Positions 12,014 to 17,224 of a stretch of DNA of 64,000 nt are shown here, one piece after another. How positions within the stretch are numbered: position 1 is the stretch's first letter; the number at the start of each line of letters is the position of its first letter. Both the position numbers and the translations under genes were made by a program. Source of the DNA: an uncultured delta proteobacterium (lineage in GTDB: Bacteria > Desulfobacterota > Desulfobacteria > Desulfobacterales > UBA2156); contig CAVTQK010000017.1 of assembly GCA_963736855.1 (NCBI GenBank), forward strand, positions 32,885 through 96,884, read 5' to 3'. A model generated the notes under the pieces. That model made no database searches. It was not told where the DNA came from and saw nothing but the letters and a program-made list of their open reading frames with translations.

Positions 12014-14452
12014 ATGGTGACATTACCTAAAATTTTCCAAAGTGATCGGCAACCGGAACCCGTCCGGATGCTTCCCCTTCTCCCTTTGAGGGATATCGTT
12101 GTGTTCCCCAGTATGGTTGCCCCGCTTTTTGTAGGCCGGGACAAATCGGTCAATGCCTTGGCCGAGGCCATGAACAGCGATAAAAGCCTCTTTCTGGCCA
12201 CTCAGAAGAGGGCCAACATCGACAACCCCACCGAAAGAGACCTCAACACCATCGGATCTGTGGGCACGGTCCTTCAGCTCCTCCGGCTTCCGGACGGCAC
12301 AGTGAAGGCTCTGGTGGAAGGAAAGAGCCGGGCACGAATCATCCGGTTCGTTGCCAATGAAGGCTTTTTCAAGGTGGAATACGAATTGATCCCGGACGCA
12401 GGCCTCTCGGATTTTGAAGGAGAGGCATTACGACGGGCCATTGTCCAGAGTTTCGATGAGTATGCCAAGCTCAACAAAAATATCTCCAAAGAGATGATCC
12501 AGAACGTCTCCACCATTGCCAGCCTTTCCCAGCTTGCCGATATGGTGGCAGCGCAATTCGCATTCAAGCTGGAAGACAAGCAGAAACTCCTGGAGGCCGA
12601 AGATTTGGAACAGCGGTTGACGCTGCTGCTGCGATTCGTCCGGACCGAGATCGACATCTTTAAGATGGATCAGCGGATCAAGGGCCGGATCAAGGAGCAG
12701 ATGGAGAAAGTTCAAAAGAACTTCTATCTCAACGAGCAGATGCGGGCCATCAAAAAGGAGATGGGGGCGGAAGAGGACCCAAGCGAAGAGCTTGCCGAGC
12801 TGGAAAAGCGGATCAAGCGCAAACGCATGTCCAGAGAAGCATCGGGAAAGGTTCGTCAGGAGTTCAAGAAACTCAGGATGATGACGCCCATGTCCGCTGA
12901 GGCAACGGTGGTCCGGGGTTACATCGAGTGGCTCATCGGTCTCCCCTGGTTCGATAAAACCGCTGTTCGTCATGACATCAAGGAAGCGGAGAAGATCCTC
13001 AACGAAGACCACTACGGTCTTGAAAAACCCAAGGAGCGGATCTTGGAATACCTTGCCGTCCAATCCCTGGTCAAAAAAATCAAGGGGCCGATATTGTGTT
13101 TCGTGGGACCGCCGGGCGTCGGTAAGACCTCTTTGGCCAAATCCATCTCCAGGGCTACGGGAAGGAAATTCGTGAGGCTTTCCTTGGGCGGTGTCCGGGA
13201 CGAGGCCGAGATTCGGGGCCATCGCCGCACTTACATCGGCGCCATGCCGGGAAAGATTATCCAGTCGATCAGGAAAATCGGCGTGAACAACCCCGTCTTC
13301 TGTCTGGATGAAGTGGACAAGATGAGCATGGATTTTCGCGGGGATCCGTCGGCAGCACTTTTGGAAGTCCTGGATCCGGAGCAGAACTTCAGCTTCAACG
13401 ATCACTATCTGGATGTGGACTATGATCTTACGGACATCCTCTTTATCACCACGGCCAACACGCTCCCGGATATCCCCCTGCCGCTCCAGGACCGGATGGA
13501 GATCATAAGGCTTCCCGGATACACCGAGTACGAAAAACTGCACATCGCCATGGGGTTTTTAATCCCCAAACAGGTTGTGGCTAACGGGTTGGAAGGCAGG
13601 AAAATCAGTTTTTCCAAACAGGCCATCTCAATGATCATCAACCGGTATACCCGGGAAGCCGGTGTCCGGAACTTGGAAAGGGAAATTGCCTCCATCTGCC
13701 GAAAGATCGCCCGGGAGGTCATGCAGAACAAAAAGAAAGAGAACATCCACGTTTCGGCCAGTTCAGTACAGAAATACCTGGGACCCCCGAGGTTCAGGGA
13801 CAGCCAGATCGAACCGGAAGATCAGGTCGGTATGGTGACCGGCCTGGCGTGGACCCAGGTGGGCGGTGAACTGTTGTGTGTGGAGACATTGACCATGCCG
13901 GGAAAAGGGGAGCTCATCATCACCGGGAAACTGGGAGATGTGATGAAGGAATCCGCCCAGGCCGCCGTAAGCTATGTGCGATCCCGGGCCGAATGCCTCT
14001 TGATCGATCCCAAGTTTTATAGAAAGCTGGATCTTCACATCCACATTCCGGAAGGAGCGATCCCTAAGGACGGTCCTTCGGCAGGGATTGCCATGTGCAC
14101 CTCCATCGTTTCCGCACTCACCCGCCGGCCTATCCGCAGGGATGTGGCCATGACCGGCGAGATTACCCTTCGCGGACGGATTCTGCCCATCGGCGGGCTG
14201 AAGGAAAAGATCCTGGCCGCCCATCGGGGAGGCATTAAAAAGGTCATCATCCCCAAGGAAAATGAAAAGGACTTGAGGGATATCCCCAAGACCATTTCCA
14301 AGCAGATCGACATCGTCATGGCGGAGCACATGGATGAAGTGCTGCCCCAGGCGATGATCCTGAGAGTGGGAGAGTCTTGTTTCAGAGAAAACGACATCTC
14401 CTTCCAGATGGCGCCGGAGGAAAAAACAGAAGGACGGCCATCTTTAATTTAA
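12014..14452 (+). CDS. lon: Lon protease
   Basis: [11 protein letters not shown]-domain, [16 protein letters not shown], and catalytic PKDGPSAG / IGGLKEK. Confidence 0.97.
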
Positions 14453-14473
14453 TCCACTGCGCTGGAATATCTG

Positions 14474-14502
14474 TTGACAAAAGGCCGTTGCGCTGTTACT
14501 AA
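14474..14502 (+). promoter_or_regulatory. sigma70 promoter of the tRNA-Val/Asp cluster
   Basis: TTGACA-N17-TACTAA, 12 nt before tRNA-Val. Confidence 0.7.
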
Positions 14503-14514
14503 TCAGCGGCTTTA

Positions 14515-14589
14515 GGGCGGGTAGCTCAGCGGGAGAGCATCGGCCTTACAAGCCGGGGGTCACAGGTTCAAACCCTGTTCCGCCTACCA
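14515..14589 (+). tRNA. tRNA-Val(TAC)
   Basis: GGGCGGGTAGCTCAG, TCGGC-CTTACAA-GCCGG arm, GGTTCAAACC, TCCGCCTACCA end. Confidence 0.95.
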
Positions 14590-14632
14590 AAAAAATAAAT
14601 GAGCCGCTTTATGGCTCACCCAATCGCTTCGC

Positions 14633-14705
14633 CGGGGCGTAGTTCAGTTTGGTTAGAACGTCCCGCCTAAATGGCGGGAAAGTCGATTGGCCGAGCCCAT
14701 CGGTC
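14633..14705 (+). pseudogene. tRNA-Asp-derived pseudo-tRNA (5' half) with substituted anticodon arm
   Basis: GGGGCGTAGTTCAGTTTGGTTAGAACG is identical to the tRNA-Asp 5' end. TCCCGCC-TAAAT-GGCGGGA then replaces the anticodon arm, followed by AAGTCG and a degenerate T-arm. Confidence 0.75.
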
Positions 14706-14735
14706 ATTGACTTGTTCTTTGTTTGTTTTCATCGC

Positions 14736-14813
14736 GGGGGCGTAGTTCAGTTTGGTTAGAACGCCGGCCTGTCACGCCGGAAGTCGAGGGTTCGAACCCC
14801 TTCGTCCCCGCCA
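14736..14813 (+). tRNA. tRNA-Asp(GTC)
   Basis: Complete cloverleaf with CCGGC-CTGTCAC-GCCGG, G discriminator and CCA. Confidence 0.97.
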
Positions 14814-14821
14814 GTAAAATC

Positions 14822-14854
14822 AAGGACTTAGAGAGTTTATCTAAGTCCTTTTTT
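14822..14854 (+). terminator. intrinsic terminator after tRNA-Asp
   Basis: AAGGACTTAGA / TCTAAGTCCTT 11-bp stem followed by a T run. Confidence 0.75.
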
Positions 14855-15090
14855 ATTTCATTAAAACAAACTGATTATTCGAAAGTATTATATCATCATG
14901 ATGCCAAGCGATGTCCGCGCATGGATATGCAAAGCGAACTCAATAAATTATTCGAAAACCGGCTTCCTGATCCCAATCTAAAATCTTCTATAAAAATTAT
15001 GAAAAGATTGACGTTAACTGATAGATAGGCTACTGTTATTAGTACCCAAAATTGAGGCGGCATTAAGAATCCACATATAGGAAAAGGGGA

Positions 15091-15330
15091 ATGTCCCCGG
15101 TTGCTTTAAGGTCTGGACCCTATAGGTTTTACTTTGTCAGTCATGATCTGCACGAACCACCGCATGTCCATATTGACCGAGATGCTTTTTCAGCCAAATT
15201 CTGGCTCAATCCTGTGGCTCTGGCGTATAATCTTGGATTTCCTGCAAAAGAACTGAGGAAGGTCGAAGCGATCACCGTTGAAAATCAAAAAGAGTTATTG
15301 GAGAAATGGAATGAATACTTTGGAACCTAA
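15091..15330 (+). CDS. DUF4160-family small protein (putative type II TA component)
   Basis: YRFYFVSHDLHEPPHVHID...AKFWL is typical of DUF4160; overlaps a DUF2442 gene. Confidence 0.8.
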   Translation: MSPVALRSGPYRFYFVSHDLHEPPHVHIDRDAFSAKFWLNPVALAYNLGFPAKELRKVEAITVENQKELLEKWNEYFGT

Positions 15331-15583
15331 GGCAGGAGAACGAATAAAGAATGTTTCTTTCACAGATGATACTATCATTGTAGATCTTTTCGACGGACGA
15401 ACTATAACGGTTCCCCTGACATGGTATCCCCGTCTGCTCCATGCAACGCCGGAACAGCTCAAGAATTGGAAAATAGCTGGAGCGGGATACGGAATACATT
15501 GGCCGGAGATTGATGAAGATCTCAGCACCCAAGGTCTTTTACAGGGTGCTCCAGCTCCCCGCACGGCTTCGAAAGCTGCATAA
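15311..15583 (+). CDS. DUF2442-family protein (partner of DUF4160)
   Basis: DGRTITVPLTWYPRLLHAT and GIHWPEIDEDLS motifs. Confidence 0.85.
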   Translation: MNTLEPKAGERIKNVSFTDDTIIVDLFDGRTITVPLTWYPRLLHATPEQLKNWKIAGAGYGIHWPEIDEDLSTQGLLQGAPAPRTASKAA

Positions 15584-15819
15584 ATTTTATAAAGTACTTG
15601 CCTAATGCCACCTATCTCAATTCGGCATCTCTAACCATCATTCCGGCATTAAAACTGATATAGTTCATCACTGCGTAAAAAACTGCGTGAATTTTGATAG
15701 ACGAATTCGAGCAAATTCTCATTTCTATTTACGAATTCACTCAAATTCTCACGCAGTAACAGTTTGATATCTTTATAATATATTGAATTCATTGAAAATA
15801 AAAAATCGGGACATGGAAT

Positions 15820-15864
15820 CTGTCACGCCGGAAGTCGAGGGTTCGAACCCCTTCGTCCCCGCCA
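15820..15864 (+). repeat. attR-like duplication of the tRNA-Asp 3' half
   Basis: 45-bp exact copy of 14769-14813, starting at the anticodon loop CTGTCAC. Confidence 0.9.
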
Positions 15865-15914
15865 CTGTTTTCATGGCCTGCCATCTGTAAAGATGTGCCA
15901 GGCCTTTTTTCTTT

Positions 15915-16168
15915 ATGGCATACTGCGTTTACATAATCCAAAGCCAGGTTGATGGAGGTTTCTATGTCGGCTCAACCCGTGACATTGATGACCGGCTTGA
16001 GCGTCACAACACAGGGAGGAGTCGTTACACCAGGGGAAGCGTGCATGGAAATTGGTTTATAAGGAAGACTGTCCGGATCGATCGAGTGCAATAAAACGTG
16101 AGTTAGAGATCAAAAACAAAAAGAAACGAACGGTTATCGAAGCGCTGATTAGAACGTCCCGCCCCTAA
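15915..16168 (+). CDS. small stand-alone GIY-YIG nuclease (one apparent 1-nt deletion in GGGG at 16033-16036)
   Basis: Absent from the ORF track. MAYCVYIIQS..DGGFYVGST.DIDDRLERHN.GRSRYTRG, then after the shift KRAWKLVYKE...SAIKRELEIK...IRTSRP*. This is the YhbQ/UPF0213-like GIY-YIG pattern. Confidence 0.85.
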
Positions 16169-16208
16169 GGCGGGAAGGTCGCGAGTTCGAACCCCTTCGT
16201 CCCCGCCA
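16149..16208 (+). pseudogene. tRNA-Asp-derived 3' repeat with substituted anticodon arm
   Basis: TTAGAACG + TCCCGCC-CCTAA-GGCGGGA + AGGTCG + GTTCGAACCCCTTCGTCCCCGCCA; the last 24 nt are identical to the tRNA-Asp 3' end. Confidence 0.8.
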
Positions 16209-16577
16209 AGTAAATTCAAGGGGTTACGGCAATCAACCGTAGCCCTTTCTTATTTGTTCCCAGCAGTATTCCCAGCAAGCAACCCGAATTTTAGCCTTTT
16301 TGACATTTCAGGCCCAGTATCGACATCACCCGGATTGAGAACCCAACAGATCAGGACTTTGCCCGGAAAGAGAAATATTCAAGAGCAATGAAATTATTTA
16401 TATTGAGACTTTACTGCGAATTCCGCATTCAGCCGCATAAAAGGGGATAGATGGAAAGGTTGAACTGCATTTTCCATATTAACTTGTCTGTTATGAGCAT
16501 ATATGTAATATTTGACATGCTATAAGGACGATATCGAGTAATTTATTCCAGATATTGATAATGTTCGGCAAACATGC

Positions 16578-16645: not shown

Positions 16646-16868
16646 ATGGCAATGACCGCACAAGAAATCTTCACAGAAACCGTACGAAACCTGCCACCCA
16701 GAGAACGGCTTCGTCTGGCAGCACTCATTTTACAGGATCTGGCACAATCAGATGTCGGCGGTTGTGAACCGAAGTGACACTTGGAGCGAACAAGACCAGA
16801 GAGATCTGACTGCCGTTTCATTGAAGTATGCGGCTGGTCTCTACCCAGAGGAGCAGGAACTTGTTTAA
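16646..16868 (+). CDS. putative antitoxin (frameshifted near 16760)
   Basis: MAMTAQEIFTETVRNLPPRERLRLAALILQDL continues in another frame to ...WSEQDQRDL...EEQELV*; overlaps the toxin start. Confidence 0.6.
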
Positions 16869-17224
16869 TCCGGGAGATGTGGTGGCGATTGACTTTCCTG
16901 GTGTGACTGGCGTCAAACGCCGGCCTGCTGTTGTAGTCTCCTCCGCAGTCTATCATGCCTCACGCCCCGATGTGGTTGTCTGCCTCATTACAAGCCAAAC
17001 CATTCCATGTGGTCCTGACGGATTACATATTGCAGGATTGGGGTAAGGCAGGTTTACGAGTCCCATCGGTCTTTCGGTGTTTTTTCGCTACGCTCCCTCC
17101 CGCTACCCATCCTGTGCTCGTCGGCCATTTGTCAGACCGAGACTGGCGTGGAGTATGTGAGTGCATAAAGATCGCCCTGGCCCCCTTATCTACCTCAGAA
17201 CGTTCGACAACATCACCGTCGTAA
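16861..17224 (+). CDS. PemK/MazF-family toxin (frameshifted near 17005)
   Basis: PGDVVAIDFPGVTGVKRRPAVVVS...ITSQ, then DYILQDWGKAGLRVPSVFR...GHLSDRDW. Confidence 0.8.

Follow-up and report, generated by a model that had tools for sequence, protein, structure and literature searches.

How does a bacterial tRNA gene come to stand beside broken copies of itself in which the anticodon arm has been exchanged for a hairpin, and why does one of these copies also provide the end of a nuclease gene? The question is raised by a tRNA-Asp locus of an uncultured delta proteobacterium (Desulfobacterota, Desulfobacterales, UBA2156), which lies in a 64,000-nucleotide (nt) stretch of contig CAVTQK010000017.1 (assembly GCA_963736855.1, positions 32,885 to 96,884 of the forward strand). 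This whole stretch is called the window here, and positions are counted from its first letter. The locus contains an intact tRNA-Asp gene, a short GIY-YIG nuclease gene and two partial tRNA-Asp copies, psi5' upstream and psi3' downstream, each of which carries a GC-rich hairpin named H. It is probably one copy of a family of small cassettes that live directly behind tRNA genes. Family-wide, the cassette consists of a single-domain GIY-YIG protein of 80-85 amino acids (aa), about 12 nt of tRNA D-arm, H and a duplicate of the tRNA 3' half, and extra H-bearing copies of the tRNA 5' part (psi5') can pile up upstream.

The features of the locus, from the end of lon onwards, are the following.

Ending at 14452, + strand: lon.
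14515-14589, + strand: tRNA-Val(TAC), found by ARAGORN and Rfam (tRNA, 66 bits), which opens a Val-Asp tRNA operon downstream of lon.
14634-14660, + strand: 5' half of psi5', equal to tRNA-Asp positions 2-28 (27/27 identical; blastn-short).
14661-14679, + strand: hairpin H1, TCCCGCC-TAAAT-GGCGGGA, which substitutes for the 17-nt anticodon arm and folds with a 7-bp stem.
14680-14712, + strand: psi5' after H1; AAGTCGA (14680-14686) matches tRNA-Asp, and the 3' half is decayed (22/33 identical).
14736-14813, + strand: tRNA-Asp(GTC), intact and presumably functional (ARAGORN; Rfam, 68.8 bits).
14814-15819, + strand: 1-kb islet with the Pfam domains DUF4160 (15091-15330) and DUF2442 (15311-15583).
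15820-15864, + strand: displaced 3' part of tRNA-Asp, from the anticodon loop to CCA (45/45 identical), a repeat of the attachment-site (att) type.
15865-15914, + strand: cassette leader, with a hairpin at 15875-15904 and then a run of T that ends 4 nt before the ATG.
15915-16168, + strand: GIY-YIG nuclease gene (Pfam PF01541; TAA at 16166-16168), a pseudogene in this assembly.
16149-16156, + strand: D-arm remnant TTAGAACG, approximately tRNA positions 19-26, which doubles as C-terminal codons of the nuclease.
16157-16175, + strand: hairpin H2, TCCCGCC-CCTAA-GGCGGGA, seen in sequence and fold.
16176-16208, + strand: psi3', the tRNA-Asp 3' half to CCA (30/33 identical to tRNA-Asp).
16218-16248, + strand: terminator and native flank of the tRNA-Asp locus, found directly behind tRNA-Asp in the empty-site genome G003.

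The two tRNA-Asp copies with TCCCGCC-N5-GGCGGGA in place of the anticodon arm, reported in an initial annotation of this DNA, can be read directly at 14634-14686 and 16149-16208. The same is true of its statement that the downstream copy forms the 3' end of the nuclease gene: the final codons read ...LIRTSRP, and the TAA (16166-16168) lies inside the loop of H2. The annotation passed over the 1-kb islet and, behind it at 15820-15864, a 45-nt repeat of the tRNA-Asp 3' part that is identical throughout. The cassette proper spans 15865-16208, that is 344 nt from the base after the tRNA CCA to the CCA of psi3', in the order leader hairpin, nuclease gene, D-arm piece, H and duplicated tRNA 3' half. 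Within psi3', positions 44-58 are of the AGGTCGCGAG type that is common in the order, and the remaining bases are of the resident type. The layout of the locus was found again in independent assemblies.

Neither H-bearing copy of the window is called as a tRNA by ARAGORN or Rfam, and a permissive Rfam search of 14300-16500 returned the two tRNAs and nothing else. A group I intron in the tRNA gene was ruled out, as this interval has no Rfam match to one. A suppressor or otherwise odd tRNA with a CUA or AAA "anticodon" was also rejected, because each copy lacks half of the tRNA and the T-stem of psi3' is broken. Elsewhere in the family, ARAGORN does call some H-bearing copies as tRNAs, with four-base anticodons (L014, L015) or odd anticodons (L023). 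The leader hairpin (15875-15904) has a folding energy of -9.9 kcal/mol (z -4.2) and is an element kept in related cassettes. In the window and in L011, L013, L015, L016 and L049 it often begins with GGCCTGTCA or GGCTTGTCA; this 9-mer equals one of the tRNA-Asp anticodon stem-loop (GGCCTGTCAC) and is followed by its reverse complement. The match may be due to chance in a terminator, or the hairpin may derive from the anticodon arm or imitate it. Shortly after the cassette, at 16646-17043 of the window, a small open reading frame (ORF) is followed by a fragment of a PemK/MazF-like toxin gene (Pfam E 5e-8).

The nuclease gene itself is broken in this assembly. Frame 0 from the ATG at 15915 meets a stop at 16094, reading of the C-terminal part requires the +2 frame, and one C is missing between 16035 and 16036 compared with the intact copy of L048, a metagenome contig. 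The cassette of L048 is 97% identical and holds an intact gene of 84 codons, whose protein (P0001) is 96% identical to the product obtained by bridging the frameshift. The GIY-YIG nuclease of about 84 aa announced by the initial annotation is therefore right as to the domain (PF01541, E 1e-18 and 67.8 bits for the bridged product; 37 bits for the N-terminal part alone) and wrong as to the open frame. The catalytic Glu lies beyond the frameshift and would be absent from a truncated product. Since the gene is frameshifted, the unit is probably inactive here, and the cassette of this genome is, as read from its sequence, probably a decayed relic.

Intact relatives have 80-87 aa and one domain, and neither Pfam nor the structure model reveals a second domain or a DNA-binding domain for a long site. 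The residues Y6, Y17, R27, H31, N32 and E63 are invariant within the clade and comprise the catalytic set of the superfamily, two Tyr, an Arg, a His/Asn and a Glu; dN/dS values of 0.13-0.30 between relatives indicate purifying selection on the nuclease. The predicted structure of an 84-aa homologue (pLDDT 89) shows the beta-beta-alpha-beta-alpha fold of the superfamily and comes nearest to UPF0213 (BH0048), to the nuclease domain of Slx1 (TM 0.61-0.69) and to the catalytic domain of I-TevI; the best sequence match is 1zg2 (UPF0213, BH0048; E 3e-10), and Slx1 is 31-42% identical. A search of 1.84 billion cluster representatives (50% identity) with one member of the family gave 791 matches at E <=1e-10 and 10,434 at E <=1e-3. 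Many of these carry N-terminal extensions of 20-55 residues, which, including that of P0001 (143 aa), are probably gene calls that read through the upstream tRNA. The genome also has a second small GIY-YIG gene outside the window (C15:648398-648556), frameshifted and of a different clade (MYYTYVL...LKSYLTG type), no sampled member of which is linked to a tRNA.

That the cassette is an insertion can be seen from a relative of the same genus. In G003, tRNA-Asp is followed at once by GTAAATTCAAGGGGTTGCGG...CAGTATTCC, which constitutes an empty site, and the GTAAATTCAAGGGGTTGCGG flank sits behind psi3' in the window, L048 and L049; the inserted piece therefore has 344 nt. Within the genus, four of six genomes have the nuclease together with hairpin copies, and the remaining two (G001 and G003) have neither. 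The 1-kb islet has another history. In L048, tRNA-Asp is directly followed by the cassette leader CTGTTTTCATGGCCTGCC... and the islet is absent, which means that the islet entered the anticodon loop of tRNA-Asp later, in the lineage of the window. It would thus have pushed the old tRNA 3' part and the cassette 1 kb downstream, and the DUF4160/DUF2442 islet with its 45-nt repeat is a separate event, either a recent insertion of the integrase type or its remnant, with no integrase gene in 14814-15864.

These observations bear on the idea that the whole locus is a collection of leftover att sites from integrase-type islands that repeatedly entered tRNA-Asp, with the hairpin and the GIY-YIG gene as incidental cargo. 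The 45-nt repeat at 15820-15864 and the islet are of just this type, and the genome holds further tRNA 3' fragments, of tRNA-Met and tRNA-Leu. However, no integrase occurs in or beside the cassette at any locus, a crossover by an integrase does not produce 5' partial copies upstream of the tRNA, and the replaced arm is left without explanation; in addition, the GIY-YIG gene, H and partial tRNA recur across phyla as a fixed unit of 340-370 nt. For the H-bearing copies the idea is already contradicted, and as an account of the locus it is very improbable. The fragments in question lie outside the window and have no hairpins: an exact 47-nt piece of tRNA-Met (C25:7502-7548) and an exact 58-nt piece of tRNA-Leu(TAA) (C14:61009-61066) are ordinary att repeats of islands, in contrast to the H-bearing copies, and a 22-nt fragment resembling the tRNA-Asp 3' end (TCGAGCCCCTTCGTCCCCGCCA, C16:7260-7281), also with no adjoining hairpin, is probably another att remnant.

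The same arrangement is found in many other genomes. In an order-wide sample, 69 of 301 genomes contain a homologue (E <=1e-8), and of the 21 places with at least 46% identity, 19 follow a tRNA-Asp of the same strand at a distance of 41-70 bp; the other two are at a contig end or inside a tandem array. A more distant group of homologues lies behind tRNA-Asn. A wider scan, with a single-protein query and one genome per species, found 110 relatives, and among the best 80 the arrangement appears behind tRNAs for Asp, Ala, Val, Lys, Arg, Tyr, Leu and Pro. The hosts belong to Desulfobacterota, Nitrospirota, Bacteroidota, Ignavibacteria, Cloacimonadota, Zixibacteria, phyla of the candidate phyla radiation and others. 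One cassette, 71% identical to a Desulfobacterales one, is on a short contig (L101) of a metagenome-assembled genome of a Promethearchaeota archaeon; in all likelihood this contig is bacterial and was binned wrongly.

On a tree of 128 of the proteins, the label of the associated tRNA needs 25 changes, compared with 52.8 after shuffling, and none of 200 shuffles was as low; the protein of the window belongs to a clade of five genes, all of them Asp-linked, that is well supported. Of the 91 members of the tRNA-linked superclade, 57 have H at the end of the ORF and 60 are linked to a tRNA, whereas two control clades of small GIY-YIG genes from the same genomes (21 UPF0213-like genes and 13 of a second clade) show no tRNA and no H at all. 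The linkage of nuclease, H and tRNA is clade-specific, and the association of homologous nucleases with tRNA fragments and the hairpin, on which the initial annotation had staked its proposal, is clear.

What kind of element H is can be judged from its sequence, its position and its abundance. In the 3.9-Mb genome there are exactly two occurrences of the motif GAACGTCCCGCC-N(3-7)-GGCGGGA and none of the reversed pattern, so that its presence is not due to chance; it also occurs at the corresponding locus in four other genomes. To avoid circularity, H segments were extracted from all loci by their flanks only, from the end of the D-arm (TAGAACG and variants) to the variable loop (AGGTCG and variants). 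Leaving aside a few chance matches outside tRNA-derived sequence, every segment is the native arm of 17 nt or an H of 16-23 nt, bounded by TCCCG at its start and CGGGA at its end. At least six perfect terminal pairs are present in about 50 of the 55 distinct H. The inner stem varies from locus to locus (CC, TCA, CAT, CTT, CTG, GT, GTC, A, AC, TCGC and others) and is always paired, in more than ten different combinations, and the loops vary freely. Conservation of sequence thus concerns the outer stem, TCCCG/CGGGA; in the inner stem only the pairing is kept, with the covariation that the initial annotation had proposed to look for.

In the Asp and Val clades H substitutes exactly for tRNA positions 27-43, while in two Asn clades it substitutes for 25-34 or 39-46; in the Ala clade one H takes the place of the anticodon loop and a second that of the T-loop, and several psi3' copies bear an extra H in the T-arm. 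The position is always that of a stem-loop, and the element is the same at Asp, Val, Asn, Ala and Lys. One sequence across different tRNAs and different tRNA positions points to a partner site of the nuclease rather than to an arbitrary, uncleavable filler, and the "immune scar" of the initial annotation is not supported in the form given.

The scar was part of a classical homing scheme, in which the nuclease recognises intact double-stranded tRNA-Asp genes in genomes that have no cassette and cuts them in the anticodon arm, a cassette-bearing donor serves as template for the repair, and H only blocks cleavage of the pseudo-copies. Several features speak for such a scheme. The nuclease gene adjoins its presumed target, relatives either have or lack the cassette and one offers an empty site, as with free-standing homing endonucleases of the Seg type; the intact 5' half of psi5' and 3' half of psi3' look like homology arms, and SegB in a tRNA cluster sets a precedent (PMC2330249, PMC13096335). 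Yet the constancy of H across five tRNAs does not suit an immune scar, an 84-aa protein with no DNA-binding domain for a long site is a poor candidate for such cutting, and the intact resident tRNA beside the nuclease gene would be a target too. Moreover, both in the window and in L048 it is psi3', rather than the functional tRNA, that holds the foreign-type bases. Classical homing is therefore regarded as unlikely.

Dispersal of H through this genome was not seen, and its only two copies are those in tRNA context, in line with the expectation that the hairpin would not prove scattered. Altogether 18 CCCGCC-N-GGCGGG palindromes are present genome-wide, including these two, and hairpins of the TCCCG type number 45, compared with about 8 in mononucleotide shuffles, and are heterogeneous. 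A genome-wide family of repetitive extragenic palindromes (REP) was ruled out on these grounds. Outside the window, a repeat of about 50 nt occurs three times (C13:151535, C15:206265, C21:620239) with the 16-nt palindrome TCCCGCCAAGGCGGGA at its centre; it shares the stem of H, has conserved flanks of its own and is not in tRNA context.

The ends of the partial copies follow a simple rule. In copies that lie upstream of the tRNA, the 5' half is complete (24-29 nt, nearly always at 100% identity), and tRNA sequence goes on after H for only 7-15 nt for Asp or 9-18 nt for other tRNAs, with one outlier. Downstream copies keep 8-18 nt before H (median 11-12) and the complete 3' half, which in psi3' is usually 33/33 identical to the resident tRNA. 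Clades of Asn, Val, Ala and Lys, with H elsewhere in the tRNA, have a short side of the same length, so that the breakpoints are set by the distance from H and not by tRNA structure. Such breakpoints would be expected if DNA were cut at a fixed distance 5' of the palindromic H, on either strand.

Tandem arrays, which the initial annotation had suggested looking for, were found among the homologues. L122 has at least four head-to-tail units of 368 nt behind one tRNA-Asp, ORF-less units are present in L117 and L017, L081 and L032 have two Asn units each, and in L053 another psi3' precedes the cassette. Together with the empty site, the patchy distribution and the pseudogenisation, they speak for the annotation's broader view of a selfish unit of nuclease and pseudo-tRNA. 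Between the window and L048, the psi3' copies differ in three clustered T-arm bases, at which the window has the resident type, and there is one psi5' in the window compared with at least two in L048; the clustering and the psi5' count fit short-patch gene conversion, to judge from these alignments. In some "intact" tRNAs position 27 is a T, which is the first base of H, and the tRNA-Asp genes of L122, L049, L051 and L054 have an extra T or a C27-to-T change right after GAACG. Conversion between H-bearing and native copies may have left these bases as its footprint; in L122, a long-read error could also be the source.

A reading that accommodates these patterns is suggested by the Ssn family, site-specific nucleases of single-stranded DNA (ssDNA) with hairpin repeats known as NTS/SRM, among them SsnA of Neisseria meningitidis (Chenal et al., 2025; PMC11893778). 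On ssDNA, SsnA binds to the hairpin repeat and cleaves a few nt 5' of the hairpin (PMC11893778). By analogy, and with somewhat better than even confidence, the cassette is interpreted as an Ssn-like nuclease-hairpin pair for which the tRNA gene is a conserved landing pad, and which spreads or amplifies by nuclease-stimulated recombination. H would be the recognition site of the nuclease, as in Ssn/NTS, and the nuclease would bind it in single-stranded or extruded DNA and nick approximately 10-12 nt 5' of it; as H is a perfect palindrome, both strands could be cut at this distance. The cuts would leave recombinogenic ends carrying tRNA sequence. Their partner in recombination would be the highly conserved tRNA gene, whether on a sister chromosome, in a tandem copy or on incoming DNA, with host recombination and ligation doing the joining. 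In this way the cassette would be inserted behind the tRNA, whose 3' half would be duplicated; units would be amplified in tandem; and short-patch conversion of the duplicates would bring about the arm swap. Since only the duplicates carry H, the functional tRNA would be retained.

Several points weigh against the Ssn-like pair or limit what it can claim. A hydrolytic nuclease cannot join DNA alone, so that host recombination or repair has to be assumed, and the 33/33 identity of psi3' fits duplication or homogenisation and does not tell crossover, double-strand break repair and annealing apart. The foreign-type bases in psi3' rather than in the functional tRNA contradict the simplest homing and not a Campbell-type insertion; psi3' of the type common in the order next to a working tRNA of the resident type, in the window and in L048, fits a crossover near the 3' end. 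However, the "foreign" T-arm type also occurs in G001, a genome of the same genus, and may thus be ancestral; a horizontal origin read from the psi3' T-arm is weakened by this and not proven. The published SRM matches none of 126 homologue loci and nothing in the window, and H has not been amplified genome-wide here, unlike NTS in Neisseria. Finally, the frameshifted copy of the window allows no inference on present activity.

Instead of being selfish, the pair could serve its host, either by controlling recombination or transformation at the tRNA locus or through a transcribed pseudo-tRNA that acts as a guide or decoy for RNA or ssDNA. The purifying selection on the nuclease is in keeping with such a domesticated role, as is the persistence of a perfect H and a perfect psi5' 5' half while the remainder decays; psi5' lies within the Val-Asp operon, so co-transcription is expected, and SsnA can be programmed by split hairpin halves (PMC11893778). 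On the other hand, the cassette is patchy even within a genus (4/6 genomes), it is a pseudogene here and has stop codons in other copies, its copy number varies up to tandem arrays, and SsnA is inactive on RNA (PMC11893778). A benefit to the host is consequently held to be improbable, slightly more so than classical homing.

A more far-reaching version of the Ssn-like pair is put forward only tentatively. According to it, the module of about 43 nt (12 nt, H, 12 nt) and the 80-85-aa nuclease would form a minimal mobile system of a new mechanistic class, in which the two-fold symmetric H, extruded in ssDNA, is bound by the enzyme and each strand is nicked about 12 nt 5' of it. Once released or exposed, the module would replace anticodon, T or D stem-loops by annealing of its short flanks, and the conserved tRNA would provide portable homology arms across species and phyla. 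In a bolder form, the tRNA-derived flanks would be a DNA guide that chooses the tRNA gene for nuclease attack.

The annotation had known of no description of the arm swap, and literature searches agree: none was found of the anticodon-arm swap or of tRNA-nested GIY-YIG cassettes, and both the nesting and the swap of the nuclease-hairpin pair appear to be undescribed. If the interpretation is true, bacterial tRNA loci harbour a selfish element of very small size and very wide distribution that has so far escaped notice, and the Ssn ssDNA nucleases would be tied to a concrete mobile life style. It would also account for the structure of the Val-Asp locus in this genome, for odd "tRNA-like" genes with four-base anticodons reported by tRNA finders and for inflated gene calls that read through tRNAs, and it would offer naturally diversified hairpin/nuclease pairs for ssDNA tools.

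Among known systems, integrase islands share with the cassette the insertion at a tRNA gene, the direct repeat of the tRNA 3' part and the preservation of a working tRNA. Unlike them, the cassette has no integrase, here or in related cassettes, its duplicate starts in the D-arm, it contains a foreign hairpin and it measures only about 350 nt; in the window, the integrase-island type fits the 45-nt repeat with its islet only. IS200/IS605 insertion sequences and the REP/RAYT system resemble it in the combination of a small nuclease gene with flanking hairpins that, in those systems, are recognised on ssDNA. They employ HUH/Y1 transposases with covalent intermediates, whereas the cassette has a hydrolytic GIY-YIG nuclease, its hairpins show no dispersal in this genome and its target is a tRNA gene. 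Membership in either was rejected, as the protein is GIY-YIG and the genome has no dispersed hairpin family. Of the two options of the initial annotation, a REP/nuclease pair amplifying at tRNA loci came closer than homing, although the nearest system turned out to be Ssn/NTS and not REP/RAYT.

In sequence and fold, the protein is matched best by UPF0213 (BH0048, YazA/YhbQ type) and the nuclease domain of Slx1. Slx1 acts on branched and flap DNA as a structure-specific nuclease and needs Slx4 and a RING domain, unlike the protein here, and the UPF0213-type clade of the same genomes differs in that none of its 21 genes has a tRNA or H. SegB is a free-standing GIY-YIG homing endonuclease of a tRNA gene cluster in T-even phages (PMC2330249, PMC13096335). 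It was shown experimentally to drive recombination-dependent tandem amplification of the tRNA-segB unit, where the tRNA 5' end and the segB 3' end share microhomology (PMC13096335). The common traits are a GIY-YIG gene among tRNA genes, self-promoting inheritance and tandem amplification of a tRNA-nuclease unit with microhomology. SegB differs in that it is a phage enzyme of larger size, contains a DNA-binding part and cleaves duplex DNA, and it has no hairpin partner, no arm-swapped pseudo-tRNAs and no chromosomal home. In location and amplification behaviour it is the nearest known system.

With the Ssn family, differences and similarities are both pronounced. The hairpins described here are inside partial tRNA copies, where they replace an arm, while the account of SsnA mentions no tRNA at all (PMC11893778), and H does not exist as hundreds of dispersed copies in this genome. 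Matches to the SRM pattern, HGTCWYN(0-2)YYVSBRHN(0-5)WNVSBRGN(0-2)RNCYNB, number 0 in the window and 32 in the genome compared with 33 after shuffling, and the hairpins belong to a different sequence family (TCCCG...CGGGA) as far as their sequences tell. The dRS3 core, for comparison, is ATTCCC-N8-GGGAAT. Matches on plasmids obtained with tblastn are of the UPF0213 type and have no SRM. On the side of likeness, both proteins are single-domain GIY-YIG nucleases of about 85-95 aa with no DNA-binding domain, and both genes are flanked by a GC-rich hairpin with a conserved stem sequence (here TCCCG...CGGGA) and a free loop. The NTS-ssnA-NTS arrangement has itself been noted as a "hairpin-gene-hairpin" resembling an insertion sequence, and a role of SsnA/NTS in recombination or transformation has been proposed for Neisseria (PMC11893778). 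The catalytic residues mutated in SsnA (Y6, Y17, E64) correspond to the invariant Y6, Y17 and E63. The SsnA cut a few nt 5' of the hairpin, estimated from the published text at about 10 nt from the stem, would match the breakpoints of about 12 nt seen here, and the conserved 5' part of the SsnA motif itself precedes the stem (PMC11893778). In layout, domain and residues, Ssn/NTS thus appears to be the closest published system to the cassette behind tRNA-Asp.

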